A DNA stretch of 64,000 nt from Psammoneis japonica (Eukaryota). Below, in pieces: positions 34,926 to 61,600 of the stretch. A program made the translations under genes and the position numbers. How positions within the stretch are numbered: position 1 is the stretch's first letter; each line of letters starts with the position of its first letter. The notes beneath the pieces were generated by a model. The model worked only from the letters and a program-made list of their open reading frames with translations. It was not told the origin of the DNA and made no database searches. The stretch spans positions 1 to 64,000 of the forward strand of contig QPGO01000296.1 of NCBI GenBank assembly GCA_008632985.1. The letters run 5' to 3'.

Positions 34926-35404
34926 TCTGGGGTTGCATGAAAAATCGAAATTTTCATTTTCCCCTGTTTTCACGTGTTTTCAAACATTTTGACTGAAGAA
35001 AAGTCGTCGTGCAGAGAAAGGGGGGCACAACTGATGTCGGTCGTCCATCATCTCGAGCATGCAATGGATGGCACCACGTGAGTGCGAGTCAGAGAGGGGG
35101 CAGCCAAATGTCGCGCCTTGTGACGTGCGCATCAGAAGCTCACTGCTCGCACCCCTGACGTCAGTGCTCTCGTCTCAATCGCTGTCGGTCTCGCTCATCA
35201 TTCGACCCACCAACGAGCTGACGTGCTGGGTGGGAGACATCATTGTTGTCTTCACGTCTGTTGATTCAGCAGCAGCCTCAGTCATTGTAACTTTTAACGC
35301 TGAGACCGAACTGCTGGACAAAGTTTTGCTGTTTTGCTCATGCATTGCGAAGCCCAACGAAAATTTTTTGCAGACAAGACAAACTGGCTCTCTTGCAGCT
35401 ATGA

Positions 35405-38380: not shown

Positions 38381-38722
38381 GGCGTTTCTTTTCATTTTAC
38401 ATTGTTTTAGTTTTCACAGCAGCAACAAGGACAAGTGTGGCGGCTGTCATTAGAAATGCCAGCAGTTTAGAACATTAGTTTAATTGCATTGTTCTTACTT
38501 CTTAGCACAGCAGTGTCTTTACGTCTTAGTTTCAATCCATAAAACATCGTTGACAACGACACCGCGTAGCCTCCGCTGTTGGCTACATCGATGCAGAGTA
38601 CGGGCTACCACCTCGGCACCGCAGTCGGCAGCATCGGCTATCGGCATGCGTGCTGTTCGCACGATCCTGAAAATGCGAGAAAAACAGGGGAAAATGAAAA
38701 TTTCGATTTTTCACGCAACTCC

Positions 38723-39016
38723 CAGATCATAAATCTGCGCATCACTTTGTGTCACCTTGGCATCCCAGTCCATGAAACATGTCACATGTTCGGGGACAAC
38801 AAGTCAGTTGTGGACAGTGCCACCATCTTGCACTCCAAGTTACACAAGCAACACACCACCCTCTTGTTCCACCATGTGCGTGAGGTGATTGCTCCTGGTT
38901 TCCTCAAGCCTCATTTCATCAAAGGTTCCCACAACCCAGCTGACATTCTCAGCAAGCACTGGGGACACTCTCAGGTCTGGCACCTCCTTCATCCCCTGAT
39001 GTTTTTGGAAAGTTGA
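38723..39016 (+). pseudogene. Copia RNase H C-terminal fragment
   Basis: QIINLRITLCHLGIPV..MFGDNKSVV..FHHVRE..NPADILSK; purine tract GGGAGGAG at ~39076. Confidence 0.85.
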
Positions 39017-42000
39017 TCCTGAAGCTTTCAACCAATCTTGCCTTGAATCTGTCACTGTTGACCCCTCAAGCAAACTGGGAGGAGTGACAGGATTTGAACA
39101 AGATTTTAGTTTGTCACACACAATTGTGTGTGCTCTTGGTTCTGCATGCAGTGCATGATGCAGTTTGCTTTTGAGCCACATGGCTCACAAGAACAACAAC
39201 AGCAGCACCAACATCATGACACTGGTCTTTTGGCTCCTGCAATGGTCTCTGCATGGAGACTCATCTTCCATTTAGACAGCAGCAAGGAGTCATTGTTTTC
39301 TTTCACCCCAGTGATCTTCATTTTCTGTCAAGACTGACGATGCCCAAACCAACCACGGCTTTTCAGCAAGCAGCAACTGAGCCCCCATCACCCTCTTCTC
39401 AAGCAGCAAATGCAACGGATCCTCCTGCCATGCCAGCGACTCTGCGGTTCACCACTTGGCCTTGCAGCACATGCAACACATGTCATGCCTTGACTCATTG
39501 ATCTTTGGACAATCATCCAAAAGAGCTGGCGTGACTTTTTGTGCAATGGACCACACTTCCTTGGGTCTCTTTCAAACCTCACGCAACAAATTGGCACAGG
39601 CCAAGCTCATTTGAGCATCCTCTGGCCATCACTTGCAGTGCCCCACAAACCAAAACATTGCCTCCTCATGTTTTCTGTTGAGAAACGCTTCTGCGGCATG
39701 GTGCTGGGCTGTGTCCTTGAACAGGTCACATTTCTGGCTCAACTTCTTTTGCAAGTTTTCACCCTTGATGCAGTGCGTCAATGGCGGATTGACCAAATGA
39801 GCCTGTGGCAACAAACTTGCATCTTCAGTGCTTGTTGCTGGTTTGCAGACAAGCAGTGCATGGACAAGCACCGGGTGTCATTTCACATTGTTTGAGTCTG
39901 GCAATGGACTGTTGAGAATCACACCAGACTCACCATTCAGTGCATTTCCTTGCTCACTCTTGAGTTCTGTGATTGTCACAAGCGTGGATGTGGTGATGAC
40001 ATCTTCGTTCTCCACTGCCATTCTAAATGTGAGGGGCACAATCTCTCTGACACACCCTGGCCAGATTTTGGAGAGAAGAAACCATCAGTCAGATGATTGT
40101 GATTCATCCCACAGATGATCCAGATGATTGTCACTGTGCAATGTGCGTGTGCACATCATGCATGAGTGGAGGCTTGACCGAGTTGCCCCCAGGTCATCGT
40201 GTGAAGTTCTTTCTGTTCTTTGGGTGTTGTTCATTGCACTCCACTTCAGCCACAATTCTTCTTTCACAATTGTGACAAGAGAAGGTTGGTTGTTGTTTGC
40301 TTTTCTGCAGGCTTTGTTCCTTTTGGGAGACAAAAACACAAGGACAGGAAAGCTCGTCAAGCACCACCAACCCCCACTCTTTGTTGGGCAGAGTTGTGAG
40401 AGATGTTTGGCGACATGGGCAGAAAGCAGTCAGTTGAACATGAGGCTCCATGTGGTGCGGAATTTTCTTGTCAACATGGGCTTGAGCTGTGGCATCACAC
40501 AAACACACTCTTCCTGTTGCTCTCCCCCTGTGGAGTGCAGCGGGTGTGGCAAGCAAAAAGAAAACACAGCTCCCCCGCGATGCTCCTGATGGAAACATTT
40601 CTTGGCCCAGAAGTGCTCCCCCCCCTCCCCACCAAAACGAAAAAAGCATCTTGTGTGTGGTGTCTCCTTGTCATCAGCAATGCAGCCAAAATGTGCAGGA
40701 CCAGTTGGCATCCAGAGAAAGATCCCTGTGGTGTTGTGATCACAACATGAAAAGGCACACCAGACACTTCAGTGCTGACATTGTTGAGTGAGCATGTTGT
40801 GCCTTGCACACACTCCACAAAATGCTCCTGATGAGTGCAGCAAGTCCCATCTCTTGTAAAATTGTGCTGCGCGGACCAACAATCAGCCCATGATCCAGCT
40901 GTTGGCCATCTTGGGAGTCAAATCAAAGAACTCTCCCATTCCATGATGGAGCCACCTACACTTGGAGTTCACAGACCAAGGACCGGAGTGGCCCATTGGC
41001 ATTTGTGCTGCCAACATTTTGTCATTGTGACTGTTTGATGTTTCTCACTGTTTCCTTGTTTTCATCATGAAGGTTGGCTGCTGGAGCTTGACTCTTCTTT
41101 GATCTCTGTCACTCCCCATCAACCTGACACTTTGAGTGTTGCTTGTGCATTGTCTCTCTTCAGTGGCTTCTGGCTTTGCCATCAAATGGGCCCCCCCCAT
41201 GGCCGACTCGAGTCGCCATTTTTTGTGCACTTGTGTGACAAGAAATGCTGCACACTTTGTGTCCTTGTGACATTCTTGTTGCTCAATGACAGCTTGTTTT
41301 CAATGAGGGTCATCAAGACTGTCACACAACCACACAAAGTGTTCTGTGCCAGAGCTCTGCATGTGCAACACGCCATCATCAACTCTCCTCCAACAACTGG
41401 CCCAGTTTCCCACATGCTTTGAGTTCAATCACCAGTTGACTGCCCTCTGTTGTTCTCTGACTCTGCTCTTCTCTGGCGGCTGGTGCACCTGCCTGAGCCC
41501 TCTGGCTGGTTGTGGTGCAAGCCATGAGTGCCAGAGGACCTGGAGCTGAAACTTTCAATTCCGAGAACTCGGAAATGGAGCTCTTGCCAGAGAGAGCTGC
41601 AAAGGGCAGGCGGCATGGGCTGCAAGCAAAAACAATCTCTTGACTCATCAACGTGCAGCACAATGTTGATGAAAGAAAAGAATGAGATTGGGGTCCAGGT
41701 GCTTGCAGCCGTGAGAACTGCTTCTGCGGCATGCACAATGCCTCCGGAGCAGCAACACAAAACAACCCCCCCACTCATGCAGGTGGGAAGCACAGACCAC
41801 CAATGCAACAAGACAAGCACTGCGTGAAACAGGGGACACCAGAGCAGTGGGCCTGGTGTGTTGATGTCATGCATGAAGCATGCACCATGACATCACACTC
41901 CAAGATCATTGTGCGGAGCCAAAGGAGTTTTTTGTGGTCAACCATGATGAACATGCAACGATTCTGACCGCAACAAGCAAGTTTGTTCTGAACGGCACAT

Positions 42001-44315
42001 TGTGGAACTGCAATGTGTTCTTTTCCTCATTGAAGAATGTCAGTTTTTTGGTTGAAAACAGTGTAAAACATCTTGTCATCGGCTTGCAAACATGAAGGAC
42101 TGCTGCAAATCAAACATCTGAGGAGCCACTCCCTGCCAGGAGCCTCAGATGACTAACTTAGACACACATTGCATCAACAATGGATCTCTGAGAGGTGCCA
42201 CACAACTCAGAGACTTGCTTCCACTGCTTCAGATGGACAAGCCCGGTCTGCCACAACCTCCAGCCCATCAGCTTCCGGCGTCTCAAGTGCTTGTTGAACT
42301 TTTGTGTGCACTCAAATCACCCATGTTCATTGCACATGAGGACTCATGACAAGCAGCAGTCAACATGATGATTGTTCACAATGACTCTTGCTGCAGTCTG
42401 AGTTGATTTGGTTGTTAAGTTGGGCAACTGGCAAACCATTTCCAGGTGGATCTGTGTTTGTTTCTGCTCAAAGTGGCCATCCCAGAAAGACAGACACCTC
42501 TCCCTGTCATTCGCTGTGCGTGCACAAGTGAGTGAACATGATTGCACCTGATGCACTCCTCCCTGGAGCTCAGAAACAGCGTTGCCGGTGGATGCACCTG
42601 TGGCAGAAATTTTGACAGACAGCAAGAAATGTGTCAGCAAAAGTGTGATGATTGACAGTTTGAGCAGTGCTCATCAACCACTGTCCTTCCTGTGGGTTCA
42701 ACAAAGACATTTCACATGTGATTGCCAATCAAATTGAAACATTGATGATGACGTGTCTGAATGGTCACCACGCTCGACAGCAACTTCATGCCACACAAAA
42801 TCACGAAGCACGGTGGTGCTTGACCAACCTGCGTGAGCATCCGGGGGCAGCTCCATCCACACTGCCACTTTCATTGAATCGTTCAATGAACACATGCAAC
42901 CTTTTATGTTCTTTGGCCATGGAGGCATTCACAACCTTTGATTGGATGGAGGCAACAACAGTGACAAAGCATGAGAAGCACAGCAGTGTGAAAAAAAGCA
43001 TCTGAAGGAAAAATTCGAGTGGCAATTGCCACACCACATGTTTCTCACATGATTCAGAAAGATGCTGCAGATGCAATTGCCGCTGGATTGTCAATGTTGA
43101 CGCCGCCGCAAACGATTTCCTCACCATGGTCAATGTCATTTTTTCTCGTGCAACGTGCAAAAAAATGTTTTAGTTGAATTGCTCATCTGCAATGTCCCTC
43201 CTACGTAGAAATTTTACGCAGTGCGAGTGAACGAAACCAAAACCTTCCGTCTTCCGGCCGTGCCGCATTGGTCATGAACCCGACAGCGGCACTTGGTTGA
43301 ACCCCCACACAACCTCTTTCGACCCACAGCTGCACTCAACATGCTGTTCCATGATGACTGATTCCAACAAGAACGATTCATTGTCATCGCATCAAGGCCC
43401 ATCACCGCTGTTGGAACGCCTGATGCAACCCCAGAAGAACCCGTCTCGGACTGTTTCGTCCAACCAAGAATGGATCGCCTTTGCTGACAAGCCAACAAGC
43501 CGCCGCTGCCATCCATTTTGAGTCCAGCACAGCCAGAAGAAAAATTGGTGGGTCTTCAGTTTCATCCTGAGCTCTTGACACGATCCCGTTTGGAATGGGT
43601 GGTGGGTCTCACCCTGCAACACATGGAAATGGGTCAACGCATGGATGTGCCAATGCCTGAAAATGCAGAGGGGATTTGGTGTGTTCAAGTTAATCCAAAG
43701 CATCATCAGACAACTGACAAGGACAGTGACATTCAGCAAGAATTTGTTCTTGTTTGCAAAGTCAAAGACAAAAAATTGTTGACTCCAAGATTGGAGTTGC
43801 ATTGCGGTCAACTTGCAGGACGTGATGCAGGCTCTTGGTGGTGGAGCATGACTTGTGTGGATTCTCCATTGCCACTCAAATTAAATTTGATTCAAGGATG
43901 CCCTTTTCAGTTTGCGAGTGATGGGAATTGTCTTTCCTCAAGATCACCCATCAGAGCCATTGCCCATGCCACTTTCGGCTGGTCCAGCCTCAACAAGCAC
44001 AAAAGGGTGCTCGCAAGGCGCCCGGATGCACCTGTCAAGATTTGCTGCAGAATCAACTTGATCAAGACAAGTTGAAGCATTGTGTGATGACTGAAGTTGT
44101 GAAAGTGCCTTTGGAAAATGATGCTGATGATGATTCCGTGCAAGTTCTGCCACAGTCTGTGGGTGGTTGCCTGTTTCAGAGTTTTTCATGCAGTCCAAGT
44201 GGACGCTTTCTCTTGGTTCAGCATGTCAATTTGGCAAAATTGCAGAGCTCTGGGATTTGCATTCTTCTCAGAGCATCATGGTGGCCTCCTTGCCCGTGGA
44301 TGATGAAATCCCACT

Positions 44316-44673
44316 TGTGACATTTTAGAATGACTGTGGACATTTCAAGACATCCAGACTCTTAGAATTTCTACACGGCTGAGTCAGACATGAGAAACTT
44401 TCAATGCAAGTGTCAAACCTTCACCGTGAACCTTAGTGCAAGATCTACGAGAAAGACATTCAAAGAGTGTCTGTTTTCTTACGTGGCACATGTCCAAAAG
44501 CCACGAGATCACTTTTCTCGCAGATCACTTTTAGATCAGTTTTAGCTTGTAATTTCAACTAAGCACGAGTTAGCAAGACAACTCATTGCTGTTTTGCTGG
44601 CTTTTAGCACCTTGTGCTGATTGTCAGCAGTGAATTCTACAGATGGGACTAGCTTCCAAGGTAGAATCCCACA
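44316..44673 (+). repeat. 5' LTR of Copia 1
   Basis: Direct repeat of 49345-49702. Confidence 0.95.
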
Positions 44674-47600
44674 CACTTCCTCTGCGACCTGCTTCACAAC
44701 TTCGATTCCAAGCCAGCCATTGATCGAAACCAAGTCCTCTGATGATGGTCAACACCCACACTTCCGTTGCCTCATTGACATCTCCCAGGACCACTGGTTC
44801 TCCAAGGAACACTGACATGACTGCTGGATCTCCTGCTCCAGCTCCTGTTGGAGCTCCTGCTCCAGCTGCAGCTCCCGCAGCCACACCTGTGCCGGCTCCA
44901 CCAATCCCGCCAGCTCCTCCTGGAGGTGGTGGCAGTGGCAGTGGTGGTGGAGGCATCCCTCCAGGTGGTGGTGGCGGCGCTCCTCCAGTGCCTCCTGTGC
45001 CTCCTGTTGCACCCGCTGCAGGACCAATCTTTGCACTGACTCCAGGCCAGCACCGTCCTGATGATTGGATCGATTGTGGCTCCAACAAGAAGGTTTCCTG
45101 CGCCAATGCTCTGGCTTCTGTCATTGAAGATCTAGAGTCCAAGGAATGACTGGCCCAGGATGCCTTCCGGACATGGGCTTTCTGCATGAAGGCGGTCTTT
45201 ATTGCATTCACAATTGCCCCAGTCATCACAAGCTTCGTCGACACTGTGGCTCCACTGTTGTTGTTCACAGTGTTCACGTCACTCAACCTGCCAGAGAAGA
45301 ACTGGAAACGTGCATCTAAGTCAGCAATGACGTCGGGTGAATGGATCATTTTGCAAATCCCAGCTGATGGCATGACTGGCAGACGCAAACCATGACAGAA
45401 CAAGAGTCGACACTCACCAAGATGTGTCACTCCCAAGAAGAAGGGATGTCCTGCTCGAGTGGCCTGCAAGAAGGCTCAATGCAAAACAACCTTTCACAAG
45501 ACGGTCTGCGCCAACACCTCTGCCACCACGACTCTGTTCAAACGAGAGCCAAGGATGGAACCAGCATCCTGCGACCCCGACTCCTTCATCATTGGTGTCG
45601 ACAACCACGCAACATGCATGATGTTGAACAACAGAGCACACTTTGTTGGCAACCTGCATCCTGCAAACAAGCGGATCAAGGGAGCAGGTGGATGGCCAGA
45701 TGCAGAAGGAGAAGGTGCTCTCAAGTGGTGCATCGAGGATGACAACGGACAGATGCATGCCATCACCACATGTGACGCATTGTGCATCCCAAACTCACCC
45801 ATTTGCCTGCTCTGCCCCCAGCAGTGGATTCAGCAAGCTCAGGATCATCATCCTGAACCACACAGAATGACTTCCTGGAACCAAGATGACGGTCTCCTGC
45901 TCATGTGGGATCAAAGGAAGCACACAAGGCTGGTCCCTTGGACCAACAACTCCAACGTTGCATGCTTTCGTTCTGCACCCGGTTCCACAGACTGTCGGGC
46001 ATTTGCCACCACAGTCAGTCGAACATGCAGCCTGCCAAATGCACGTGACACCTCCAGATGACGAAAGTGACTCAGAGTCCGTGGACGCCGCGAATGAAGA
46101 AGAAGCCTTCACAAGTCCTGACGAGACAGGTCCCAATGAGACTCAAGGCACACGCAACAGCATTGATGAGGAAGTGCCGCTGTTGTTCAAACCGGCAGAT
46201 GCTGCACACAGATCCGACTCACCTGATGAGAACCTGAAGGATCTAGTGACCCCAGACATGCAACCTAAAATCAACCACCCCATCAATGTCATCCCTGATG
46301 ATGATGCCCTTGCGGCCACCAACAACCAAGGTGAATTGTTGCATTGGCACTGTCGCCTTGGACACCAATCATTCAAAATGATCAAGCTCCCAGCTGCGTT
46401 GGGTGTCCTTCCAAGATGCCTCCCAATGGTGAAAGACCCAAAATGTGCTGGCTGCCTCTGTGGTGCCATGGCCAAACGCCCTTGGCGCACCAACTCCAAA
46501 CGCAAATCGAACATGCATGTCACTACAAAGCCAGGGGAGGTCATGTCGGTGGATCAGCTTGAAAGCTCGACCCCAGGTTTCATCCCACAACTCAAAGGGA
46601 GACCTGCAAAAAAGTGATGCAGAGCAGCAACAGCATTCGTTGATCACTGTTCCAAGATCGGATGCGTGTTCCTGCAACAGTCACTTGCCTCCGATGAAAC
46701 CCTGAAGGCCAAGCACGCATTTGAGGCCTTTGCAAGACAACATCACGTCCAAATCAAACACTGTCATGCCAACAACGGCCGATTTGCAGACAACGCTTTC
46801 ACGCAAGATGGCAGCACAGAAAAACGAATCCGAGACCTGCAAGAACAAATGCGCAAGCAGCTGTTACATGCAAAAGCAAGATGGCCAACGGCTGTTGAGA
46901 TCAATCTCTGGCCCAGCGCATTGCGCAACTCCAATGAGATCAAGAACAACTTGCCTGGCCAACCAGATGGCAGCTCACCAATTGAACGATTCGCCTCCGT
47001 CAAGGTTGCTCCCAATCTCAAGCAACACCACACTTTCGGATGCCTCGTCTGTGCGCCAGACAACTGACTGCAGAGTGGACAGAGAGCACCCAAGTGGCAA
47101 TCAAGATCAAGGTTAGGAATCAACTTGGGACCATCACCAAGACACACCGGTTCAGTCAACCTGGTGCTCAACCTTGAGACTGGACTTACCTCACCGCAGT
47201 TCCACGTCCAATTTGATGACTTCTTCGAAACAGCAAGTCCTTCAGCAGGGAGTGCACCAACATTCTCACACTGGCAAATCGCATCAGGCCCAAGGAAGCA
47301 AAAGGCACCGAGATTTAACGCGTTCAAGCCTCAAAAGGAAGCAAGGGAGACTTGCTCCACTGCTCCAGCGCAGAACGCTTCAGCACTGGAACCCGACATT
47401 CCGCGACAACTCAAAGACGAAAATTTTCCAACTGCAGATGACGAGACTTTCGAGCCAGCAGCAGATGCACCACCTGAAGGCACCCACGAGACGGCATTGG
47501 AACAACCAAGTGTCAGCAGGTCCAGCAGAGTGCGCAAACTGACGCAACGCATGGTCGAAAGCCAGCAACAACAAGCAGCCGGCATCGCATCGTGTCAAGC

Positions 47601-49344
47601 AAATTACAGCAAGTGCTGCAACGCTGTGCACAAAGATGACTACAAGCTGCGAGACGACATGGACTCACATTTCGCCTTCTTAGCCAAAACTGACCATGAT
47701 GCCATGCATTTTGATCAAGCCATGAAAGAACCAGACCAAGACGGATTCATCAAGGCTTGCATCAAGGAGGTCAACGACCACATTGAGCGCAAGCACTGGG
47801 CACTGACACCCATTGAAGAGGCACCTGAAGGCGTTGACATGCTCCCTGCAGTGTGGTCCATGAAGAGAAAGAGAGATGTCAAGACAAGAAAGGTGCACAA
47901 GTGCAAGTCCAGGCTCAATGTGCATGGTGGCAAGCAAGAATTTGCCTTCAACTGTTTTCAAACTTATGCCACCGTTGTCAACTGGAACACCATCTGCTTC
48001 CCACTCATCCTGTCTGTCCTGAATGGTTGGCATGCTCGACAAGTTGATTTTGCACTTGCTTGTCCTCATGCCAACATCGAGCATGACATGTGTGTGGAGC
48101 TGCCAAAAGGCATTGAAACCAAACATGGAAATGGCAAGACTCATGTCTTGAAATTGTTGAAGAACCTGCATGGACAGAAACAAGCAGGCAGAACATGGGG
48201 TGAGCACTTAAGGCAAGGCTTGGAAAGAATCGGATTCAAACAATCACAAGTCGACAAGTGTCTCTGTCACAGAGGAAATGCCATTTTCCCACACTGTGTT
48301 GATGATGGCATTTTTGCCTCACCAGATGAGGCTGCCATTGACCAAGCTGTCGCGGATGCACACAATGAGAACTTTGATGTTGACGATCAAGGGAGCATTG
48401 ATGATTGTCTTGGTGTCAATGTCAAGACTCTCCCTGATGGGCGCATGAAGCTCACGCAACCGCATGTGATTGATCAAATTCTGGAGATGGTGAACTTGCC
48501 TCGGTGCATGCCGGACAAGCAAACTCCAGCTCCTGCATCCAAAATGCTGCACAGACACGAGAATGAAGACTCACATGATGGATCTTTTGACTGCAGAAGT
48601 GTGGTTGGCAAACTCAACTTCCTTGAGAAGTGCACCAGACCTGACATGGCTCATGCAAAACATCAGATTGCACGGTTCTCCAGCGACCCCAAACAATTGC
48701 ACGGCGAGGCAGTGCTGTGGTCATGCAAGCACCTGCGTGCAACCAGACATGAAGGTGTCTCATGCTTGAACCCGACAAGGACAAGTCATTGGAAGTCTAC
48801 GCGGATGCCAACTTTGTGGGCAATTGGAACAAGCTGACTGCCCCATGTGACGTCAGTGCTTCAAAGTTGCGAACCAGATGCGTCATCACCCACGCTGATT
48901 GTCCTGTGGTTTGGACATCTAAGTTACAGACACAAATTGCACTCAGCATGACAGAAGCCGAATGCATCGCACTGTCCGAGAGCCTCCGAAGTGCCATGCC
49001 TCTCATCAACTTTGTGCACGAGCTCCAAGAACATGGACACAAGGTGCCATCCAAAACTCCTTTGGTCCACTGCAAGGCCTTCAAAGATGATTCTGGTGCC
49101 TTGGAGATTGCAAGGTTGCCCAAGATTTGACCAAGAACCAAGCACTTCAACATTTCACTGCATCATTTCAAGGAACATGTTAGGAAGGGCATCATTTCCA
49201 TTTTGCCCATTGACACCACTGAACAAATTGCAGACATGGCAACCAAGCCAAATCCTCAGAATTTGTGTGCAAAGCTGCGCAAGAAGCTCCTCAAGTGGTG
49301 ATTTAGTTTCAAGTCACAGTTGCACCCAACACTTTCAAAGGGAG

Positions 49345-49702
49345 TGTGACATTTTAGAATGACTGTGGACATTTCAAGACATCCAGACTCTTAGAATTTC
49401 TACACAGCTGAGTCAGACATGAGAAACTTTCAATGCAAGTGTCGAACCTTCACCGTGAACCTCAGTGCAAGATCTGCGAGAAAGACATTTGAAGAGTGTC
49501 TGTTTTCTCATGTGGCACATGTCCAAAAGCCACGAGATCACTTTTCTCGCAGATCACTTTTAGATCAGTTTTAGCTTGCAACTTCAACCAAGCATGAGTC
49601 AGCAAGACAACCCATTGCTGATTCACTGGCTTTTGGCACCTTGTGCTGATTGTCAGCACTGAATTCTGCAGATGGGACTGGCTTCCAAGGTAGAATCCCA
49701 CA
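49345..49702 (+). repeat. 3' LTR of Copia 1
   Basis: Follows the PPT; direct repeat of 44316-44673. Confidence 0.95.
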
Positions 49703-51849
49703 CCACTGAGCTGCGATGCCTGCTCTCGTCATGTTTGGCGATTTTGGTTTCATCCCCTCAATGATTCTACCATTCTTTGTGCCCATGCCTTGGATGGTGG
49801 GGATCCGGCTTGTGAGGTTGAGGATGGCAACTTTTGGGATGCCTTGCACACGCACAACCTTCAAGTGGACGACAATGATGGCACAATGGCATTGGATGAT
49901 CCAACTCAACTGGCGGGTCTAGAGTGGCATCATGACGATGTCAACTTTGCTGAATTGGGTTTGATTGTCATGGATGAATGTCATTGGAAGGACCACATGG
50001 AGTGCAAATGGAAAGTTGCACGTGTTGGAACCAAGGCTTTGGTGTGGGAGCAATCATGGGAGGACCGTCACAATTCCCGGGGGCACCCGTCACTCGACTG
50101 GGCCCAAGGGGCCAATCGTTCATTTTGGGACCAGATCCTCATGTCATTTTCCTCAAGGGAGCCAGAGCATCTCCTTTGGGTGATTGTCCCTTTTTGGATT
50201 GACGGCGCTTGGATGCGGGTGCAACCAAACGTCTTTGGCATTGCAAGGCTCCAAAAAAGGAGACATTCCCAACGTTGCCTTAGAAGTGGGTGGTGTTGCA
50301 CCAATGGACCATGACAATGTGTTTGAATCGGTTGTCATTTCGCTGCCGGATGATGAACGTGTGCTCATGAGTTGAGAAAGCAACACGACACCAAGAAACT
50401 GCCATCTCACGTCACTCAAGGATCTCAGCGACCAAGTTGCTGCAACTGCCTTTCTGCATCCCCAAGTTGACTTGCTGGGTGTGACTAAAGAATTGGTCAT
50501 GTGTGAACACAACGATGGTGTCACCATGACAGCCAATCTGCATTTGCCCAAGGACTGTGATGGCACACCACGACCAATGCTCTTTTGGGCGTGTCCTCGA
50601 GAGTTCAAAAATTCAAAGGCTGCCGGACAAGTCAAGGGGAGCAAACACAAGTTTGCATCGGCGTCGTGGGCATTGCCGGTTCATTGGGCAGAAAAGGGAT
50701 GGTTCATTGTGGATGACTTTGCACTTCCAGTCATTGGAGAGGGCAAAGTACAACCCAACGACATCTTTGTTGATCAAATTGTGTCAGGCACCACAGCTGC
50801 CGTCGAGCATGCAACCAAGCGTGGTGTTTGCGATCCAACAAAATGTGCAGTGGGTGGTCATTCTCATGGGAGCTTCATGACATCCCATTTGCTCTCGCGT
50901 GCAAGTCTGTTTGCGGCTGGATTTGGTCACAGCGGAGCCTTCAATCGAACCTTGACTCCCACGTCATTTCAATCCAAAGACCGCAGCATGTGGGAAGCAC
51001 CCGACACACACATCAACATGTCGCCCTTGATGCACGTCGAAAAGCATTCCAAAAAAGACCGTGTCGGGAAACTTTTGTTGATTCATGGGAAGAATGATGA
51101 AAACAGTGGAACGCATCCAATGCAGTCTGAGCAACACTTCTCCGCTTTGAAGGCTTTTGGAATTGAATCGCGACTCTGCATGTTGCCGCATGAGCGACAC
51201 TCCTGCCGGGCCAAGGAATCCATTTTGCACATGGCATGGGAACAAGAAACATGGCTGGCAAGTTTGGAAGACAAAACATCTGGGAAAGACCAGGCTAGAG
51301 TTGCACCACCCACATGGAGAACTTTGATGTTGCAGAGTGGATCTCTTTGCAGCAAGCATGGATTTTGGATTTTCTTTTTCTTGCTGCAGAGATTGCGCAA
51401 GCATGTGCAGATGTAGAGTTGGCAAGGGCAGCAGCAAGAGGTGGTGGATCAAACGGTGGTGCGGGTGGGTGAAGCACAAACATGTGCCAAAATTCTGCAA
51501 GGACAATGGCATGGAACACTTGTGTCACACCACACATTTACGCCACTTGTGGCATGCATTTTAGAAGCCTTCTTTTTTTGACAGCAGTCAATGGCATGCT
51601 GCGGATGCACGTCCTCGCCACAATGTGTCATTTGCACACTTTAAAAATTTTGCAGCTGATGGTGCTGTAGAGCTGCGGTGCAGAATGGCATGGACAAGAC
51701 ACCAGTCGTCTCAGCTCTGCACATGCCTGTTCCGATGTTGGTTGGAGGTTCAAGCAGCAACAAATTAATGCAAGACAACCAACCTCTGCCATGGCACCAA
51801 ATTGAAGCAACGGAGACTCTCTCCCGGGCACTTGCCAGCATGTTCATGC

Positions 51850-53900
51850 CTTGCACAAACAGAAATGGTTCCCTGGGCTTGACAAGAATGGTGAAATGCA
51901 CACTGCTCATGGGGTTGGTCGTGCGAGCATCAAGAGCCACAAGCCACTTCAAGGTGCAGAGTTGAAGAAACACACGGCAACGTGTTTTCCCCATGGACAT
52001 GTTCACTGTGTGCCCAATGTTGTTGAGCGAGCTCTGAAACACAAAAAAGAAACAGCTGGCCAGCTGGCATCAACCGGAATGCAACAAGGTCAAAAACAGA
52101 CCAACAAAAAGATGCAAAAGGCGGCAAAGGAATTCGAGGTCCCTGCCAGTGCAAAAATTTCACTTGTCTTTCCTGATTTCTTGGACAGAGATGACACCTG
52201 AAACACTCAGTGTTTCAGGTGTGAGACAAACAAACTGGTGCTGTTGTTGGGGTCAAGACAATGTGCCCATTCTGCAAATCAAATGCTCATGTGGAGCACA
52301 AAGACAGGGCGGGATGCAAGGACAATGTGAGGGCAACTGCAGGCCACAAGGAGAAAATCCCGCCAGTGGGGCCAATTGGATTGTGCAGCAATCAGACTTG
52401 TGGTGGACCAGTTGACAATTTGGAGAACCATGATTGCTGCTCGACGCACTCATTCACAGTCTGCAGTGAAGCCTGTTGGCAACAATGTCCAGAAGAGGTC
52501 AGGGAATGGTGTGACACCATTCTAAGAAAAGACGCATCATCCGGAGAAAATGGACAAACTTTGGTGGCAGAGCAATTGTGTTGTGAAGTGCTGCATGACT
52601 CAACAATTTTAAAAAATCTGGCAGACAAGATGGAGGAAGTGCACCAACAGGCTGAGCGCAGGGCGATTGCAGCATGTGTGGCTTTCACTGAATCCCAAGG
52701 TGACCCCAACAGCTTGCCTGATTTTGGCAGTGATGATTGTGACAAGTTGTTTTGACCACCAAGTCACGACACATTTGGCAGTGTGTTTGATGCAGTGTTT
52801 GAGATTGTCTTGCCCTTTCTACATCAAGACCTCTTCATGAGAACCCCAGGCTGATTTGTTCAATGGGACTCTGCTTTTGACTTTGCAAAGAAAGCAATGA
52901 ATGACACAGAGTCAGAAGAGGAGTTTAAGACAGTTGCCATTGTCTTTGGCGAGCATGGACACATTCTTTCTTGGGCATTTGCTCAAGCCAAGGGAAGCGT
53001 CATGTGCCAGCAACTGATGTGCTTCATCAAGAAGCTGTGAGCATCAAGGACAGATGGAAAATGAAGGCAACCACTGCATGAATGAAGTTGAGCATGGACA
53101 CAGTGATGTCTGCTGTGAAGGACTTGTTGATGCATGGGAACATTGGTTCCTCAAGCTGTGGCCAAAAGCGAAGGTGCCACCAATGAAAGATTTGTGGCAT
53201 GGGGAAAAAAGGTCACAGACGGCACTTGCGGAACTTCTCACAAGCTTCGTGTGTCATTCACAAAGGGGCTGGCCCAAGCCTGCCTTGCACATGATGAAGA
53301 TTCAAAGTGCTCAGTTGTCAAAAAGTTCAAGGAGGATGAAAATTGAAAGAGTGCACCAGGGGAAACAAGTCCATGTCGACCAAAGTGGCAATGTCGGCTG
53401 TGATGGATCAAAAGACGTTTGGGACAAAAGTGAAGAATTCTGTGCTGGAGCCCTCTGCAATGGCTGCCAATGTTCAAGATGCTTGTGAGAAAATTAAGGT
53501 GGAAGACAAGAGACTGTGACAAGAGGCCAAGGAATGAAGAGACGGACACTTGTCTTGCCTTTTGAAACCGTCGCCAAACGTGAGCCAAGGAACCGAGCTT
53601 GAGGTTCAGAATTTCATGCAGCACATTGAAAAAGGTTGTTTTGCCGACCCTCTTGGTGTTGATGACATTGACACAGAACTCTTGGATGATCCCCATCTGC
53701 ACTGTGAACAACTGTGAGGAACTTCCCCAGGCAAAAGTGTGAACAAGTGTGTCAACAGACTTGCGGCGGACACCGCCATTCACGGAGCACCTCGAGTGCA
53801 CAAGAGACTTTGGCTTTGAGCCACTTGGTTTGACATTGACAAAGACACCAAGCTGCATCACATTCTTGGAATAGAGAAACCACAAACTGTTGAGTGGTTC
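51850..53900 (+). pseudogene. Degenerate putative DNA transposase, family unassigned
   Basis: Fragments such as VFGEHGHI, KDLWHG..KVTDGTCGTSHKL..F and (R)GTS..SVNK.VNRL resemble a transposase core; many TGA stops and frameshifts. Confidence 0.35.
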
Positions 53901-55199
53901 CTTCATGAGATGTTGTTGGGAAGGAAACCGAACCTCTCTGAGTGTTCTGGCACGGCATTCCCCCCAAAGCTTGAGCCTGATTGTGATGAGCCCGTGGGGA
54001 TTGAGTTCTTGCCACACAAGCAATGGGACCGCATTGCAAATGATCTCAATGAATTGCAAGCAATCAACCTGTCTGAACAGCAGAAGTCATTGAAGGCAAT
54101 GTGTGCATCTCAGCCTGCTGCCAGTTCATCTCCACCTGAGTCGCATCCAAACAATGGTTTGATGATGAGCGTTTCCCACTTGTCACAAGCTGAGTTGCCA
54201 CAAGGTGAGCTTGCCCTGAATGCTGCTCAACAGGAGTCAGCTGCGGTGCTGCCACTGGCTGCATTGCAACAGCATGTGTCGCAATCTGGAGTGGTGTCCC
54301 AGAATGTGCTGGCGGTGACTGCTTTGCTGCAGGCACCATCACGTGTTTTGCAACAACAAGTTCACAGGCATTGTTGTCTCAAGATCAGCAGGTAGCTGGG
54401 GTTGCAAAATGTGCTGATCATGGTCAGCTGCAAAGCATTTGGTCTCGAAATCTTTGTGCAATCAAATGGGTCTCTTTGCTGGACATCTGTCTCAACCCAA
54501 GGGAGCCTCTGACATTTTGTCAAGATCAAATGTTTTTGCAGACATTGGTTTCTGCATCCAAAGTCACTAGCCTTGGTGAGGAGAAACTAAAAGCTGCAAT
54601 TGCAGCTGCTTGGAGGGAACAATGCTGTTGATTCTTTTCTGGCAATGGCACTGGCTTGGGAGGGCAAAATGTGACTAGAACATGTCACTGTTTTGTTGAA
54701 AGAGAAAGGCAATCGACTGCTTCAGATGCAACCAGGGCTTTCAAACAGTCAGCAACCCATGATTTCTCACATGGGCAGGCCGCAGAAGCAAATTTGACGA
54801 GAAGATGTTAACAAACCATCGCACGCTCAGTTGGGGGATCTGTTGAGACAATTGCCGGGAAGGAGCATCCGGAGCACCAAACAAGCCCGTGTGGAAGAGT
54901 TGCAAAAAAGAGTTTTAGGGAAAGCCATGAGACTTCAATTTGACACTGTAGATGACACTGCATCAACATCTCTCTCTTCCTCTCTTCTTTCCCTTTTTTA
55001 AACTTCAGGGGCGCCAGAAGGGCACCCCCCTTTTAAACTTTGCATCCACAAAAATCCCCAGACAGGGAGCTGCAGGAGTGGGAGGAAAGAAGGGGCACGT
55101 GAAACAGCACTCAGGGCATTTGAGAGATGGAAGTGGAGCAGAAGGAAAGGGGAGGGAGGAGAGAAAGCAAAGGGTGTGGGAAGAAGAGTGATGGACAAT

Positions 55200-56980
55200 G
55201 TTGCAACTGACAGTTTAGATGGCCCATTGGGAGGGGGGGAAGAGCGGTGGGAGCTGCCAAAGCAACCAGAGGAAAGCTGATTCCATGCACAATTGGCAGA
55301 TGGGAGAAGAGCAGATGGGGAGGCAAGAGCGCAGGAGAAGGCATTGAAGGAAGCAGAGGAGTGTCACAGGAAGGAGGGGTTGAGCCAAGGGGGTTTGGGC
55401 TGGGAGCATGGGGAGGGAGAGGAGGTGCCAAAGAGGAGCCAGTGGAAGAAGCAGCCAACAAGACCACCCAGGTGATCAATGGTTGAGGGAAGCAGATGTG
55501 TTCCACTGGCACTGAGGAATTGGATGGCAAGAGAGCCATCAGAGGAAGAGGTTGAGGGGCCTCAAAACTTGGACCTTGCACTTGCACAGCGTGCCTCAGT
55601 CAAAAGAGAAGATGAGGGGGAGGCAGACCAGGTGGAGGGCGAGGGGGGGCTTTGGGGACAGTGACGTTGATGGCAATGTGTTGATGCTGAGAAGGAATGG
55701 CAAGGGAAGCAGGGGGAGGGATGGCAATTCCTGCATCAGCTGGACAGAGAATGGGCCAATGCAGCAGAAGGTTTGCAGGTTTGAGGTGGACGTAGGTGGA
55801 GGAATGACAGAGCTTGGACAGGGGGGGCAAGAGTTTGTGCAAGGATGAAAACAGTGTCCCGTGTGCCATTGGAGAGCTTGGACTTGTCATTGCACTTGCA
55901 CATGAAGGTGTGGTCACCGCAGGCATCAAGGGAGGTGTGGCCACAGGGACAAGGAGAGTCAATGAGGGAGGAGGGAAGTGCTGGAAGATGCAGCTTGCGT
56001 TGGATGGCTGTGGTGCACTCATCAGAGGAGAGGCGGGAAGAGGCAAATCAGGAGGAGAGGTGGTGAAGCGGCAGGCTGGCAAGGGGCAATGGGAGGGAAT
56101 GGAGAGCAACTTGGATGGCAGGAGGAGCATCAGCAAGAGTGGCATGATGGTGTGTTGTTGGTGGGCATGATGAAGGTGGCAAGCAAGTCCAGGGAGCCTC
56201 ATTGACTTGACCAAGGTGGGAAGATTTGGAGCAGCCAATGAGGAATCAGAAGAGAGCACAGAGGCAAAGCAGCGAAAGAGAGTGTGAAGGCACAGGTTGG
56301 AGTGGGAGTTGTTCCAGGAAGAGAGAGAGAGAGAGAGAGAGATGGAAGCAGTGCAGGAGCTCAAGGCTGTCCCCAGAAGGGAGCTGTGCACCGTGACAAG
56401 TGAAGCGGAAGGAGAGCAGAAGAGAGATGAGGAAGGAGGGGCTGGCGGCAGCAGCAGGAACACACAGGCCCAAGCCACACCAACGGAGGCAGGGAGAAAG
56501 GCAATGGCCAGGGAGTGGGGAGGTGGAGAATCAGAGTGGGCAGAGGCGCAGTGAAGGAAGTGATGGATGAGGTCCAGAGGAATGGGTCAGGCGGGTTGTC
56601 AGGGTCAAAGTTGCAGTGGAAGTCGGTCCAAAGGAGGTGGGCAGAAGAAGGCACAAAGCAGTGTTTGAAAAGTTGAGCTTGAGTTTGCTTGTCACGTGGG
56701 CAAGGCAGGAGACCGTCAACCTCAGCAGAGAGGGAGGAAGAGACATCAGAGAGGAAGAGGAGTTTTGGCAAAAGCACAGGAGCCAAGAGGCTGTCCGAGG
56801 AAGTGGACAACCAGAAGTGAGCTCGGGGTTGTAGGAGGGGTCAACAGAAGGGTTCAGGAAGGCAAGAGCATTGCACAGGGAGGAGGCATTAGATTGGGAG
56901 AGAGAAGAAAGTGGGCTGGTGCCGCTGATGGAAATGAGGATCTTGTTGTCAGGGTGTCTTCATGGGCATGAGCACCCGGA
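55200..56980 (-). mobile_element. 5'-truncated non-LTR retrotransposon with restriction-like endonuclease (CRE-like)
   Basis: Minus strand gives DKQTQAQLFKHC, the Zn knuckle CPCGHTSLDACGDHTFMC..NGTRD and (R)PADAGI..IAINVT. Confidence 0.7.
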
Positions 56981-57189
56981 ACCAAGATGGCCCAAAAAGC
57001 CAAGCCAATTTTTGAGTTGACATGTGGCTAATCTTCACCATGAAATCTGGGACGGTTTGCCACTTTCAAACAGATGACAAAGATGTAGCATGGTGGCTTT
57101 TGCAACAATGCAAATGAACAATGCTTTGCTGGAGGCTGGTTTTGACAGTCTGGATGGCATGGCTGATGCCCTGCTTGATCATTCCGGTG

Positions 57190-57365
57190 GCTTCAAAGAT
57201 GCAACGACAGGCTCTGCGAGAACTGGGCCTTGAAAATGGCTCTTTCACACAGCAAGAGCTCAAGAAAGCCTGCCGTGCACGAAGCCTTGAAACACATCCA
57301 GACAAGGGCGGCTCACACGAAGCCTTCATTTGTGTTGCCCTAGCTTGCAAATTGCTCTCTGGTTC
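57190..57365 (+). pseudogene. J-domain (DnaJ) fragment, Tyr-converted
   Basis: LRELGL..ELKKACRARSLETHPDKGGSHEAF..VALACKLL, i.e. KKAYR and AY changed to Cys. Confidence 0.75.
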
Positions 57366-57583
57366 AGGCACTCACAAGTTCCAAAGCAACGAGCGTCTGT
57401 GGGAAAGTGGCCTGAATTCTGGGATTCGTCTGCACTTTCAGTGATTAAAAGCTGCAATTGCAATGCAACAATCAATCAGCAACTTTGCACCAAAAGTTGA
57501 GAGGTGACAATCGACACGTTAGAAAGACCATGAGCAGTTTTTATGAGCAGATTCAGCTGCCATCTAAAAGAAACGCGAAGTTG

Positions 57584-58368
57584 GGCTTGGTCTGCAGGTG
57601 AACCAAGCCGGATCGGATCGCCGGATCGACTCCTTCACAACCCATTAAAATGTTAGTCCATCGAGTCAAAAAAGTCGATCCGGGGCCTTTGTGGGACTGA
57701 TCCGCCATCTCGGATCGGATGTCGTGTCGAATTTGGAAGATTCCGTGCCGTCATCATGACAATGGCGCAACATCACCCGATTGTGACACAGGGCGGCATG
57801 AGATTCAGCCATGAGGGCACAGAACTTCCTCAGCATTGCAGCCTGAGTCTTTCCATGCTTGAAATGGAGATGAAAAGGTCGCGTGGCTGTGAAACAGCTT
57901 GTCAAACCGATGATGCCATAAAGATTTGTTGGAGAAACATTGAACAAGCAAAACAACAAGTGTTCATTGTGCAACTCGAAATTTCAATGCAAAAACATGG
58001 TGTCAGTTTCTCAACTGCAAAAGTGATGGCTTTTTCTTCCTTGTTGTTGGTGCAAACACTGAGTGACAATGATGCTCAATGATGTGGTCAAGCAAGCATG
58101 TAAAGCAGCAACAAAAGTGCAGTTCTGTCATCATGTTGTCTTGTCATGACAAGATGTGAAGCATCATGGCCACACTTGTTGTTGTTCGCTTTGTCAGTGC
58201 TTTGTTGTTCTTGGGAGTTTGGAATCTTGAAACTTGTGTCATTTTGCGACTCATCAAAATGTCGAATCCGATCTGTGATCCAATCCGATTCCACCTGTCG
58301 ACTGACAGAACTCTGACGTGATCCGATCCATTGATCCGACCCGGCACGGTTCACCTGTAGACTGAGCC
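57584..58368. mobile_element. Tourist/PIF-type MITE (785 bp) with GATCGG-rich subterminal motifs
   Basis: TIR GGCT(TG/CA)GTCT(G/A)CAGGTGAACC..GCCGG.TCGGATC; flanks TTG (left) and TTA (right). Confidence 0.8.
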
Positions 58369-58371
58369 TTA

Positions 58372-58621
58372 GACACGCGCGAATCTGAGAACAAACATCG
58401 CATTCGTGACTCGGGTTCCGCGGGATTCGAGACTGAGTGTCACACACGGATTTGAATCATGGATCTGAATCAACCAATCAGGTTGAGTTTTCTTGATTCT
58501 GACTGCTGTTGCTTGTGGGGAGGAATTGCCCTTCATGCTCATCAATTCATGACCAAAGGACATGACTCGTGGAGGTTCGATGTTGTTGCACAAAACATGC
58601 AAATGTGGATGTGTTGTCACA
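58372..58621 (-). repeat. Probable 3' LTR of Copia 2 (left limit uncertain)
   Basis: Minus-strand PPT GAAGGGAG is followed by TGTGACA, as in Copia 1. Confidence 0.5.
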
Positions 58622-61600
58622 CTCCCTTCAACAACATTGGGTGGAATGATGACTCAAAAACGTCTCACCACTTAAGAAGTGACTTCCTGTGCTTGACGAA
58701 GAGGTTTTGTGGCAGAGGTTTGGCGAAAATGTCTGCAATCTGACTCGCCGCATCAATTGGTGGGATTGACATGAGACCCTTGCGAACATGATCTTTAAAG
58801 TGGTGGAGCATGAGGTTGAAGTGCTTTGTCCGAGGATGCATCTCAGGCAACCTGGCAATCTCCAGTGCTCCAGAATTGTCTTCAAATGCCTTGCAGTGCA
58901 TGACAGGTGTCTTGGAAGGGACATTGTGACCATGACTCATGAGTTCTTGAACAAGGTTCATGATCGGAATGGCACTGCGAAGACTTTCCAAAAGAGTGAC
59001 AAATTCAGCCTCGGCAGTGCTGAGAGTGATCAGGGTCTGCAGCTTGAATGTCCAGACAATGGGACATCCGGCACAAGCAATGACAAACCCAGTTCTTGAT
59101 TTGGAAGTGCCGATGTCATCAGGTGCAGTCAGTTTGTTCCAATTGCCCGCGAAGTCCGCGTCAGCATGAACTTCAAGGGACTTGTCTGTTGAGGGCTGTG
59201 GAATGACACCTTCATTTCTGGTTTCGCAAAGGTGCTTGCAGAGCCACAGTGCGGCCTCACCATGAGAAACCTTGGGATCAGATGAAAAACGTGCGATCTG
59301 ATGCACTGCGCAAGCGATGTCTGGGCGAGTGCTCTTCTCCAGAAAATTGAGCTTGCCGACAATGGAGCGGTGGTGAAAGCTCCCTTTGAAGCTTGGCTCA
59401 CTCATGTGCCTGTGGAGAATCTTGGAGGATGGAGCCGGTGTTGACTTGTTGGGTGCTCTTTCAGGTGAGTTCGCCATCTCCAGCATCTGATTGACAAGAT
59501 GCGGTTGCACAAGTTTCATTCTGCCATCAGGCAGTGTTTCAACGTTGATGCCGAGACAATCATCCAGAGCACCCTGATCATCAACATCAAAATTTGCATC
59601 TCTGACATCTTGTGTGGCTTTGACAACTGCAGTGTTGTCTGGCAATGCAAAGATGCCATCATCCACACAACACACAAAAATCACATTGTCACGGTGACAG
59701 AGGCACTCGTCGACTGCCGATTGCATGAAGCCAATCCGCAGCAAGCCATCATGTGAGTGTTCTTGCCATGCCCTGCCTGCTTGTTTCTGTCCATGTAAAT
59801 TCTTCAGCAATTTCAGAACATGAGTCTTGCCATTGCCACATTTTCTTTCAACTCCTGCAGGCAAATCCACACACATGTCATGTTCGGCATCAGCCTGTGG
59901 ATGTGCCAATGCGAAGTCAACTTGGCGTGTGTGCCACTTCTTGAGGATGGCTGTGATCAACACAAGTCGGATGGTGAACCAGAAGACGATGGAAGAGCAG
60001 GTCTGGAAGCAGTTGACTGCATGCTCTTGCTTTCCACCATGCACATTGAGTCGGGACTTCCATTTGTAAATGGCACAAGTTTTGATGTCTCTCTTGCACT
60101 TCATTGACCATGTGGAGGGAAGAATGTCAACATCATCAGGTGCGTCTTCACGTGGCATGAGTGCCCAATGCTTCTTCTCAACATGATCATTGACCTCTTT
60201 GATGCAGGCCTTGACAAACTCGTCTCGGTCAGGTTCGCACATGGCTTGATCAAAGCACACGAATGAAGCAGGTGAGTCCATGTTGTCCTGTAACTTGCAA
60301 TCATCTTCATGCATGGCATCACAACACTCCTCTGCCTCTGCTGCACAGGAGACAATGCCTTGAGCCCTCTGGATCTGGCTTTCGCGCATCCTTTCGGTCG
60401 GGCGTCGTTGTTGGCTGGACCCACTGACACTGGGCTGACCCATGGCATGCTGTGGCTCAGGAGGCAATTCGTCATCATCTGGAGGTACACACAGCTCCTC
60501 TTCTTCAGGTTGTGATGTGTCAGCATCAAAAGAGTCATCCACAGTGGGATCAGAATGCTGCAGCTGAGGTGGGACATCCGGACCCGGCTCAGGCAGTTCT
60601 GGTGGAGCAACAGGTTGCTCCCTTGTTCCTTTTGATCTCCCAAAGATGTTGAGTGACTGTTTGGTTTTGCTTGCTTGAAGCCTGTGATGCCTTGCCATTG
60701 TGCAAATGTTGATGGATTGCCAGCAGAAGGTCAGACCGTCTCAAAAAAGTTGTCAAACTGTGCGTGGAACTGCGGCGATGCGAGTCCGGTTTGTAAATTC
60801 AAAACCAAGGCAACTGATCCTGCGTGTCTTGTTGAAGGTCCCAGATTGATTCCCAACCTTGCTCTTGGATCCCATTTAGGTGCTCCACCTCCTCCTTGCA
60901 ACCAGTTGTGCAAAGCGTAGACTGGGCATCCAAAAGCATGGTGCTGCTTGAGGTCAGGCTGAACCTTGACCGACGTGAAACGTTCCAAAGGAGAGGAACC
61001 ATCCTCATGGTCAGGCAAGTGGTTCCTGATCTTGTTCGAGTTTCTTAAAGCGCTTGGCCACAAATTTGTCTCTGTTGCAGATGGCCATCTAACCTTTGCA
61101 TGTAAGAGCTGTTTTCTTGCTTGCTCTTGCAGGTCCCATGTTCGTTTTTCCGTGATGCCATTTTGAAAGTGAGCATTGACGCCACAGTGCGAGATTGTCT
61201 GTTGTTGTTTCTCCACGTCTTGGATGAATGCATTGTCAGCAAATCTCCCGTTGTTGGCATGATGGTGTTTGATGCAAACATGGACTCGTCGTGCAAAAGC
61301 CTTGAAGGAATGTTTGGCCTCAAGTGTCTCGTCCGAGGTGAGTCCCCTCTGTGAGTGTGTGCATCCCAATCCGCTACAGTGATCAACAAATGTTGTTGCT
61401 GCTCAATGCCTTTGCTTCGCAGGTCTCCCTTTGAGTTGAGGGATCAGTCCAGGAGTCAGACTTTCAAGCTGGTCAACCGATGCAGCCTCTCCAGGCAAGG
61501 TTGCCAAGTGGATGTGTCTGTTCCACTTGGACTTGGAGCACCATGGTCGTTTTGTCATGGCACCATGCAGGCAGCCGGCGCACTTTGGGTTGTGCACCTT

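Follow-up and report, generated by a model that had tools for sequence, protein, structure and literature searches.

A dead copia retrotransposon of Psammoneis japonica in a chromosomal domain depleted of TpA

The first 64,000 nucleotides of contig QPGO01000296.1 from the Psammoneis japonica assembly GCA_008632985.1 form the window to which all of the composition and element analysis described here is confined. At positions 44316 to 49702 lies a dead Ty1/copia retrotransposon, referred to below as element 1, which probably sits in a chromosomal domain under two context-specific mutation processes, one of the TpA type that is near saturation and one of the CpG type. At TpA the direction of change is to TpG or CpA and both strands are hit. 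Traces of the process are limited to sharp-edged domains rich in repeats, and it is tied neither to element 1 nor to reverse transcription, as a DNA repeat and a host-type pseudogene are also hit.

Results

Element 1 and its insertion site

Element 1 is bounded by two long terminal repeats (LTRs) and a target-site duplication, and interrupts the coding sequence of a copy of a DPP-IV-like S9 peptidase gene. The composition of each part is given as the number of TpA or as the ratio of observed to expected dinucleotides (o/e).

43363..44315, plus strand: DPP-IV-like S9 peptidase pseudogene, N-terminal part, corresponding to residues 2-336 of protein P0140; frameshifted; TpA o/e 0.03
44311..44315, plus strand: left target-site duplication, CCACT, 5 bp
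44316..44673, plus strand: 5′ LTR, 358 bp, with TG...CA ends; 15 TpA, o/e 0.49
44674..49344, plus strand: internal region of the dead Ty1/copia, with a leader and a gag-pol frame in three pieces; TpA o/e 0.07-0.09
49345..49702, plus strand: 3′ LTR, 358 bp; 6 TpA, o/e 0.21; CA or TG at nine sites that are TA in the 5′ LTR
49703..49707, plus strand: right target-site duplication, CCACT, 5 bp
49703..51266, plus strand: DPP-IV-like S9 peptidase pseudogene, C-terminal part, corresponding to residues about 328-863 of P0140, with a Peptidase_S9 match; TpA o/e 0.06

The pieces of the gag-pol frame lie at about 45552-46025, 46105-48777 and 48708-49262. Pfam matches were obtained to the gag-pre-integrase domain (E = 3.5e-8) and to RVT_2 (E = 2.2e-25); seven of the nine frames tested gave no family match, and none of the decayed pieces gave an integrase core (rve) domain. 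The TG...CA ends of the LTR pair, the 5-bp duplication and the position of the pre-integrase domain ahead of RVT_2 are those of a Ty1/copia element, and with three stops, two frame changes and its tyrosine codons erased this copy is dead. Its closest organism-named relative is from Chaetoceros tenuissimus (42%). The same ends, duplication and domain order characterise the CoDi-type copia elements of diatoms, according to the available text of Maumus et al (2009; PMC2806351), from which this copy differs in being dead and in its loss of tyrosine codons. A paralogous flank lacking the insertion is present on a contig of run X2 from the same sample; it is about 90% alike and is continuous over the insertion point, consistent with the element boundaries and the target-site duplication.

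Differences between the two LTRs

The LTRs align without gaps over 358 of 358 positions and differ at 21 of these (94.1% identity), mainly in two classes, TpA-type and CpG-type. Nine sites that are TA in the 5′ LTR read CA (LTR positions 119, 165, 235, 245 and 256) or TG (132, 291, 324 and 336) in the 3′ LTR. There are two adjacent double differences, CA against TG at 146-147 and TG against CA at 280-281, four CpG transitions (62, 100, 167 and 251), two further transitions (238 and 268) and two transversions (277 and 315). An earlier reading of the sequence, the first-pass annotation, had counted five TA/CA, four TA/TG, two reciprocal CA/TG, four CpG and about four other changes, and the alignment reproduces that tally exactly. 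For the two sites it called reciprocal, an ancestral CpG that decayed once in each LTR is an equally good explanation.

Changes are concentrated at TpA, where 9 of 30 T or A residues are affected as against 5 of 178 elsewhere (Fisher p = 1e-5), and all nine TA states are on the side of the 5′ LTR (binomial p = 0.004). As a rough measure of the fraction changed since insertion, 9 of 30 site-copies have changed at TpA and 4 of about 616 at other bases, a per-site rate at TpA in the LTR pair of roughly 50 times that at ordinary sites; for CpG the figure is 8 of 20 site-copies if CpG is assumed to be ancestral. The Kimura two-parameter distance between the LTRs is 0.062 over all sites and falls to 0.035 when the TpA class is left out and to 0.011 when the CpG class is removed as well, so that a date taken from the whole pair would be about 5.5-fold too old, which bears out the earlier claim that dating by LTR divergence is inflated here. 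An exact 28-base word from the LTR gave no matches in a metagenome scan. LTRs are identical at insertion, from which it follows that the nine losses of TpA in the 3′ LTR would have arisen in the chromosome after integration.

Direction and strand of the changes

As the LTR pair by itself cannot give the direction of change, 30 homologous polyproteins (P0001-P0030) were taken as an outgroup, and columns with at least 80% agreement were treated as conserved. A second, older copia in the same domain, element 2, was compared alongside.

58615..62500, minus strand: second copia, about 69% alike to element 1 at the DNA level; 0 of 17 conserved tyrosines kept

No LTR pair was found for element 2, even with 7-base words. 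Among 463 conserved columns element 1 differs at 78, and 57 of these differences can be read as unambiguous single-base steps. In 23 of the steps A has become G, 21 times after a T; T>C accounts for nine (eight before A), G>A for nine (eight after C) and C>T for three, which leaves 13 others. A>G or T>C thus makes up 32 of the 57, and most of the others are of the CpG type. Element 1 keeps only 1 of 18 conserved tyrosines, together with 14 of 14 tryptophans and 16 of 18 glutamines; in element 2, where all 17 tyrosines are gone, 14 of 14 tryptophans and 20 of 20 glutamines are kept. The three well-aligned in-frame stops of element 1, at 46615, 47065 and 49128, are all TGA, with no TAA or TAG, and stand opposite residues that are mostly arginine in the homologues (30/30, 15/30 and 27/27 of those aligned). 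Taken together, the polarised steps, the loss of tyrosine and the restriction of stops to TGA mean that TpA has been destroyed to TpG or CpA with CpG decaying alongside, as the first-pass annotation had proposed for T>C and A>G at TpA.

That both strands are affected, also proposed there, is seen in the 3′ LTR, where five CA and four TG outcomes lie on one strand, and in the ratio of Tyr>Cys to Tyr>His changes, 11:4 in element 1 and 7:6 in element 2. At the tyrosine columns shared by the two elements the outcome, Cys or His, is the same at seven and different at six, and the two elements were therefore hit independently. The decay of CpG to TpG or CpA, marked by the CGA>TGA stops, by the eight of nine G>A steps that follow C and by a CpG o/e of 0.13-0.64 in depleted DNA against about 1.0, has the pattern that would be expected from decay of methylcytosine, to judge from the sequence.

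The same LTR differences could in principle be read the other way round. In a process like repeat-induced point mutation (RIP), C>T at CpA, or G>A at TpG, would have made the TA sites of the 5′ LTR. This direction is compatible with the LTR pair taken by itself, in which 11 of 72 cytosines in CpA context have changed as against 3 of 85 others. Against it stand the exclusive use of TGA among the stops and the near-complete retention of glutamine and tryptophan in both copia elements beside the loss of 17 of 18 and 17 of 17 tyrosines, and two further observations of the opposite sense come from the DNA around element 1.

Two compositional states in the window

About half of the window is in a depleted state, with TpA o/e of 0.02-0.11, CA/TG of 1.5-1.9 and CpG of 0.13-0.64. 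The genic stretches at 1-12.7, 13.8-21.1 and 35.3-37.3 kb have values of 0.59-0.74, 1.03-1.20 and 0.96-1.02, respectively, and the two states meet at edges that are sharp to within a few hundred bases.

12910..13690, no strand: depleted island of 0.8 kb in a genic stretch; 1 TpA, CpG o/e 0.13; edges sharp to about 100-500 bp
21060..35280, no strand: second depleted domain, with unclassified decayed sequence, a MITE-like copy and 23-bp satellite arrays; two N gaps
38650..64000, no strand: depleted domain with both copia elements and the pseudogene; enriched in CpA/TpG and poor in CpG; TpA o/e 0.05-0.09 outside the LTRs
20715..21123, plus strand: MITE-like repeat, copy in DNA of normal composition, with terminal inverted repeats; TpA kept
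26319..26732, minus strand: MITE-like repeat, copy in the depleted domain; 23 of 29 aligned TpA changed (14 to CA, 9 to TG) and none gained

The MITE-like repeat (resembling miniature inverted-repeat transposable elements) is 410 bp long, and its terminal inverted repeats measure about 25 bp. Its two copies differ by 47 substitutions, which include the 14 TA>CA and 9 TA>TG changes and none in the reverse direction. Since the copy in depleted DNA shows 23 losses of TA and no gains, and the 25 kb surrounding element 1 are almost free of TpA, which is the opposite of what RIP leaves, a RIP-like origin of the LTR differences is the least probable of the readings considered and has hardly any claim on the data. 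RIP and plant-type CHG deamination were rejected on the direction of change, in the interior and in the domain. A partial MITE-like copy at 23248-23487, in depleted DNA beside an N gap, still has TpA; it has three TA changes in common with the heavily mutated copy, and a partly mutated master may therefore still have moved.

The peptidase pseudogene keeps none of eight conserved tyrosines. For the small island at 12910-13690 neither a second copy within the window nor a domain match was found, and an old insertion of small size may be its origin. The depleted domain also contains three arrays of a 23-bp satellite (27405-29056, 31865-32445, which is inverted, and 33829-34924), of 25-64 copies with 81-85% matches; the consensus unit has no TpA, and one array adjoins an N gap. 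As for duplication as a possible trigger, the sequences hit are repeats or have paralogues.

With TAA and TAG almost gone from 21-35 and 38.6-64 kb, long open frames abound there on both strands. Of those in the depleted domains of at least 100 residues, 101 of 103 have no Pfam match, the remainder being Peptidase_S9 and a weak DnaJ, so that most of the depleted DNA remains unclassified. The DnaJ-like frame, at 57118-57441, falls below the Pfam cut-off. Between 54000 and 58000 purines strongly predominate on the plus strand (GC skew 0.24-0.26, AT skew 0.14-0.21).

Depletion of TpA is not general to the copia lineage. Six metagenomic relatives, all distant at 38-59% protein identity, have TpA o/e of 0.42-0.72 even where CpG has decayed; in three of them (contigs L004, L005 and L006) a CpG o/e of 0.18-0.40 goes with TpA of 0.61-0.66, and decay of CpG alone is therefore insufficient to account for the loss. 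An artefact of base calling at modified bases is unlikely and was rejected, as contigs of run X1 agree base for base with the depleted interior over 929 and 922 bases and the changes are accompanied by real decay in the form of frame changes and stops. These contigs have a word depth of about 25-30 and are a separate build, although the run may be the assembly's own data.

The host genes in the window have diatoms as their best organism-named relatives (Bacillariaceae sp., 58%, and Seminavis robusta, 57%), followed by other ochrophytes. For neither the host genes nor the copia was a near-identical protein found among the relatives. By these matches the source is probably a diatom lacking close kin in the collections, and it is not Bigelowiella. 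The introns of the host genes in the window are few and small; a gene of the PPDK_N/phosphohistidine-swivel type at 1249-3066 on the minus strand has a short intron that carries an apparent in-frame stop. A 977-residue open frame at 16665-19598, also on the minus strand, has HMG-box and LysM matches and a 111-bp tandem repeat at 17677-17951 (2.5 copies, 88% matches).

Possible changes before integration

A deaminase could also have acted before the element entered the chromosome, an adenosine deaminase editing its RNA or its single-stranded cDNA in the manner of APOBEC3. In the textbook scheme of reverse transcription the minus strand that is exposed longest is that of the 3′ LTR, which would account for changes in this LTR only, and the LTRs are indeed mutated less than the interior. 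Edits in RNA would, however, be copied into both LTRs, and editing of the minus strand yields one type of change, whereas the 3′ LTR has five T>C and four A>G on one strand. The MITE-like repeat, the host-type pseudogene and unclassified flanking DNA bear the same signature, and in the chlorarachniophyte Bigelowiella natans comparable mutations arose in integrated DNA during culture, according to the part of the preprint available (bioRxiv 10.64898/2026.01.13.699255). Editing before integration is thus very unlikely. The first-pass annotation had already assigned the changes to chromosomal DNA and not to RNA editing or errors of reverse transcriptase, an assignment that the losses in the MITE-like copy, the pseudogene and the sharp-edged domains uphold.

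Target motif

The TpA that survive in depleted DNA are unevenly spread over sequence contexts. Compared with numbers expected from the context densities of genic DNA, 4 of about 423 survive at RTAY, 63 of about 748 in mixed contexts and 77 of about 224 at YTAR. In polarised events from the MITE-like and LTR pairs with TAY on one strand only, the adenine of the TAY has changed in 15 of 17 (p = 0.002). The target looks like a motif close to 5′-TAY-3′, or equivalently purine-T-A on the opposite strand, as judged from these counts. The TpA of the 5′ LTR comprise nine YTAR and six mixed sites, so that all 15 belong to the slow classes, which partly explains why the LTRs lag behind the interior. Clustering of strand-coordinated changes was rejected as an indicator, being uninformative because the TAY context sets the strand.

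The self-complementarity of TpA also bears on the chemistry, as by sequence A>G at TAY is indistinguishable from T>C at RTA. The process might thus start from a thymine lesion in 5′-RTA-3′, through TET/JBP-type oxidation to a base mispairing with G, or from a TpA lesion left unrepaired in silent chromatin. In dinoflagellate DNA 5-hydroxymethyluracil is enriched at TpA, a point in favour of such a lesion. On the other side, a three-base motif with so strong a choice of strand resembles the site of an enzyme, and T-A-pyrimidine resembles the U-A-C context of the tRNA substrate of TadA. The authors of the B. natans study, in the part of their preprint available, likewise prefer an ADAT2-like deaminase, as a proposal (bioRxiv 10.64898/2026.01.13.699255). 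A chemistry based on thymine would seem unlikely, if still worth bearing in mind, and a TadA/ADAT2-like adenine deaminase acting on DNA is, by analogy, the most likely candidate.

Apparent sparing of the 5′ LTR

The first-pass annotation had described the two LTRs as unequally hit, and the inequality proves to be complete for TpA, all nine losses being in the 3′ LTR. Within that LTR 9 of 11 TpA at LTR positions 119-336 have changed and 0 of 4 elsewhere. The 5′ LTR is the richest TpA island of the 25-kb depleted domain, with no TpA in the 440 bp upstream or the 460 bp downstream. If CpG is taken as ancestral, three changes of the CpG type fall in the 5′ LTR and five in the 3′ LTR.

Several points weigh against the reading of element 1 as a casualty of TpA- and CpG-specific mutation acting throughout its domain. 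A split of 9:0 is a poor fit to a uniform chromosomal process. Depletion already marks the leader that adjoins the 5′ LTR (TpA o/e 0.09), as if the LTR itself were protected or younger. The family has many copies, with 362 contigs of run X1 aligning to it at a likeness of at least 80%, which makes conversion or assembly collapse possible. The direction of change at the nine LTR sites is taken from the surrounding evidence. Fresh transposons may differ in make-up from the genic DNA that supplied the expected context densities, and the kind of enzyme involved is a conjecture. Local protection or patchiness, conversion by a younger copy and collapse in the assembly may each be the cause of the sparing of the 5′ LTR.

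In the more specific form of the last two, the process in the domain is real and a younger, unmutated copy took the place of the 5′ LTR through gene conversion or recombination, or reads from other copies overwrote this LTR during assembly or polishing, in which case the nine differences would measure the gap in age between two LTR copies and not an asymmetry that arose in situ. The one-sidedness of the nine TA losses and the way in which the TpA-rich island stops exactly at both edges of the 5′ LTR speak for this, as do the many copies of the family, with a summed contig depth of 788-832 over the LTR against 66-128 over the flank. The scaffold contains N gaps and is hence a gapped assembly, and the partial MITE-like copy in the depleted domain retains TpA as a young insertion would. 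Set against this, a conversion must end exactly at the inner edge of the LTR, and the CpG-type changes, at 3:5, mean that the 5′ LTR is not pristine if CpG is ancestral. The first-pass annotation had raised the doubt that the two LTRs come from a chimeric assembly of two insertions. The matching CCACT duplication is consistent with one insertion event, as is the paralogue in which the flank runs on without a break; given the 9:0 split, misassembly or conversion of the 5′ LTR may nevertheless have occurred. Overall, replacement of the 5′ LTR is an improbable explanation that nonetheless carries some weight.

Discussion

The favoured account of element 1, that of mutation at TpA and CpG throughout its domain, may be put as follows. 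The element would have inserted into the peptidase gene copy and lies in a domain under both kinds of mutation. Conversion of TpA to TpG or CpA would replace A:T by G:C at the adenine of 5′-TAY-3′ on either strand, with the change of CpG to TpG or CpA running beside it. The agent may be an enzyme aimed at silenced, repeat-rich chromatin, and its effect would be one of genome defence, in which reading frames are destroyed by the replacement of tyrosine, isoleucine and other codons that contain TA.

As far as the searches of the literature show, TpA-specific A:T>G:C hypermutation of invading DNA has been described once before, in the 2026 preprint on B. natans by Mettrop et al (bioRxiv 10.64898/2026.01.13.699255), of which part of the text was available. 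In mutation-accumulation lines two integrated viral regions had 231 mutations, of which 230 were A>G or T>C, at TpA, and arose in some lines only at about 6e-7 per site per generation, about 1000-fold over background. The genome of B. natans has 124 TpA-depleted clusters, reverse-transcriptase and DDE domains are over-represented among its depleted coding sequences, and an ADAT2-like deaminase was proposed as the agent. The main text, in the part available, gives no context wider than TpA and makes no mention of diatoms.

The signature is that of the giant-virus and virophage DNA of B. natans. In both, the changes are almost only A>G or T>C, at TpA, and give TpG or CpA according to strand, with a long-term loss of TpA and gain of CpA and TpG; both processes act on integrated DNA and are limited to regions of foreign or repeat origin adjoined by ordinary DNA. 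The differences are that the host here is a probable diatom, a stramenopile and not a rhizarian, and that in place of viral inserts the targets are LTR retrotransposons, a MITE-like repeat, a disrupted host-type gene and unclassified decayed DNA. Depletion has gone further, to TpA o/e of 0.02-0.11 compared with 0.45 in a viral region of B. natans in the available text, a strong decay of CpG coincides with it and the wider preference for TAY is visible. The rate in B. natans was measured in lines, whereas here only the per-site excess of about 50-fold is estimated from the LTR pair. What is added here is thus the probable host group, the near-saturation, the coincident decay of CpG, the loss of a host-type gene, the TAY motif and the evidence from LTRs for action after insertion.

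Fungal RIP offers a second comparison, as it too makes context-specific transitions in repeats and their neighbours, destroys reading frames and leaves compositionally distinct blocks beside normal genes. RIP in ascomycetes proceeds by C>T at CpA and makes TpA and AT-rich DNA; here TpA is lost and GC is slightly up or unchanged. With APOBEC3 and ADAR the process would have in common a hypermutation of deaminase type aimed at mobile elements. Those enzymes act before integration and on one strand, unlike the changes described here, where both types of transition occur on one strand of the 3′ LTR and sequences of a DNA transposon and a pseudogene are also hit. An A preceded by U is the preferred substrate of ADAR, according to the available part of the B. 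natans preprint (bioRxiv 10.64898/2026.01.13.699255). No report of TpA-erasing hypermutation in diatoms was found in the literature search, and in the available text of two papers on diatom transposons (PMC2806351 and bioRxiv 10.1101/2025.10.24.684338) the terms 'hypermut', 'TpA' and 'dinucleotide' do not occur.

The second of these, in the part available, dates diatom transposons by LTR divergence and copy identity using a genome-wide mutation-accumulation rate (bioRxiv 10.1101/2025.10.24.684338). In depleted domains a date obtained with such a rate would be several-fold too old, as with the LTR pair of element 1, and old insertions would fade from detection faster. Gene finders could call false genes in the depleted DNA.

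Near-saturation in a probable diatom would bring a major group of algae, and one amenable to genetics, within the range of the phenomenon, the three-base target motif narrows the search for an enzyme, and the process can destroy a host-type gene that is caught in a domain. We put forward tentatively, as a proposal almost as likely to hold as to fail, that diatoms, or this lineage at any rate, carry a dedicated, chromatin-targeted DNA editor that turns the adenine of TAY into a base read as guanine, on either strand, and so erases almost all TpA from transposons, satellites and trapped genes. If this is correct, the editor would be the A>G counterpart of fungal RIP, and the sparing of the 5′ LTR would mean that it reads the state of chromatin or transcription at sub-kilobase resolution. 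An editor held in common with a chlorarachniophyte would be either old within the SAR (stramenopile, alveolate and rhizarian) supergroup or spread among marine protists.

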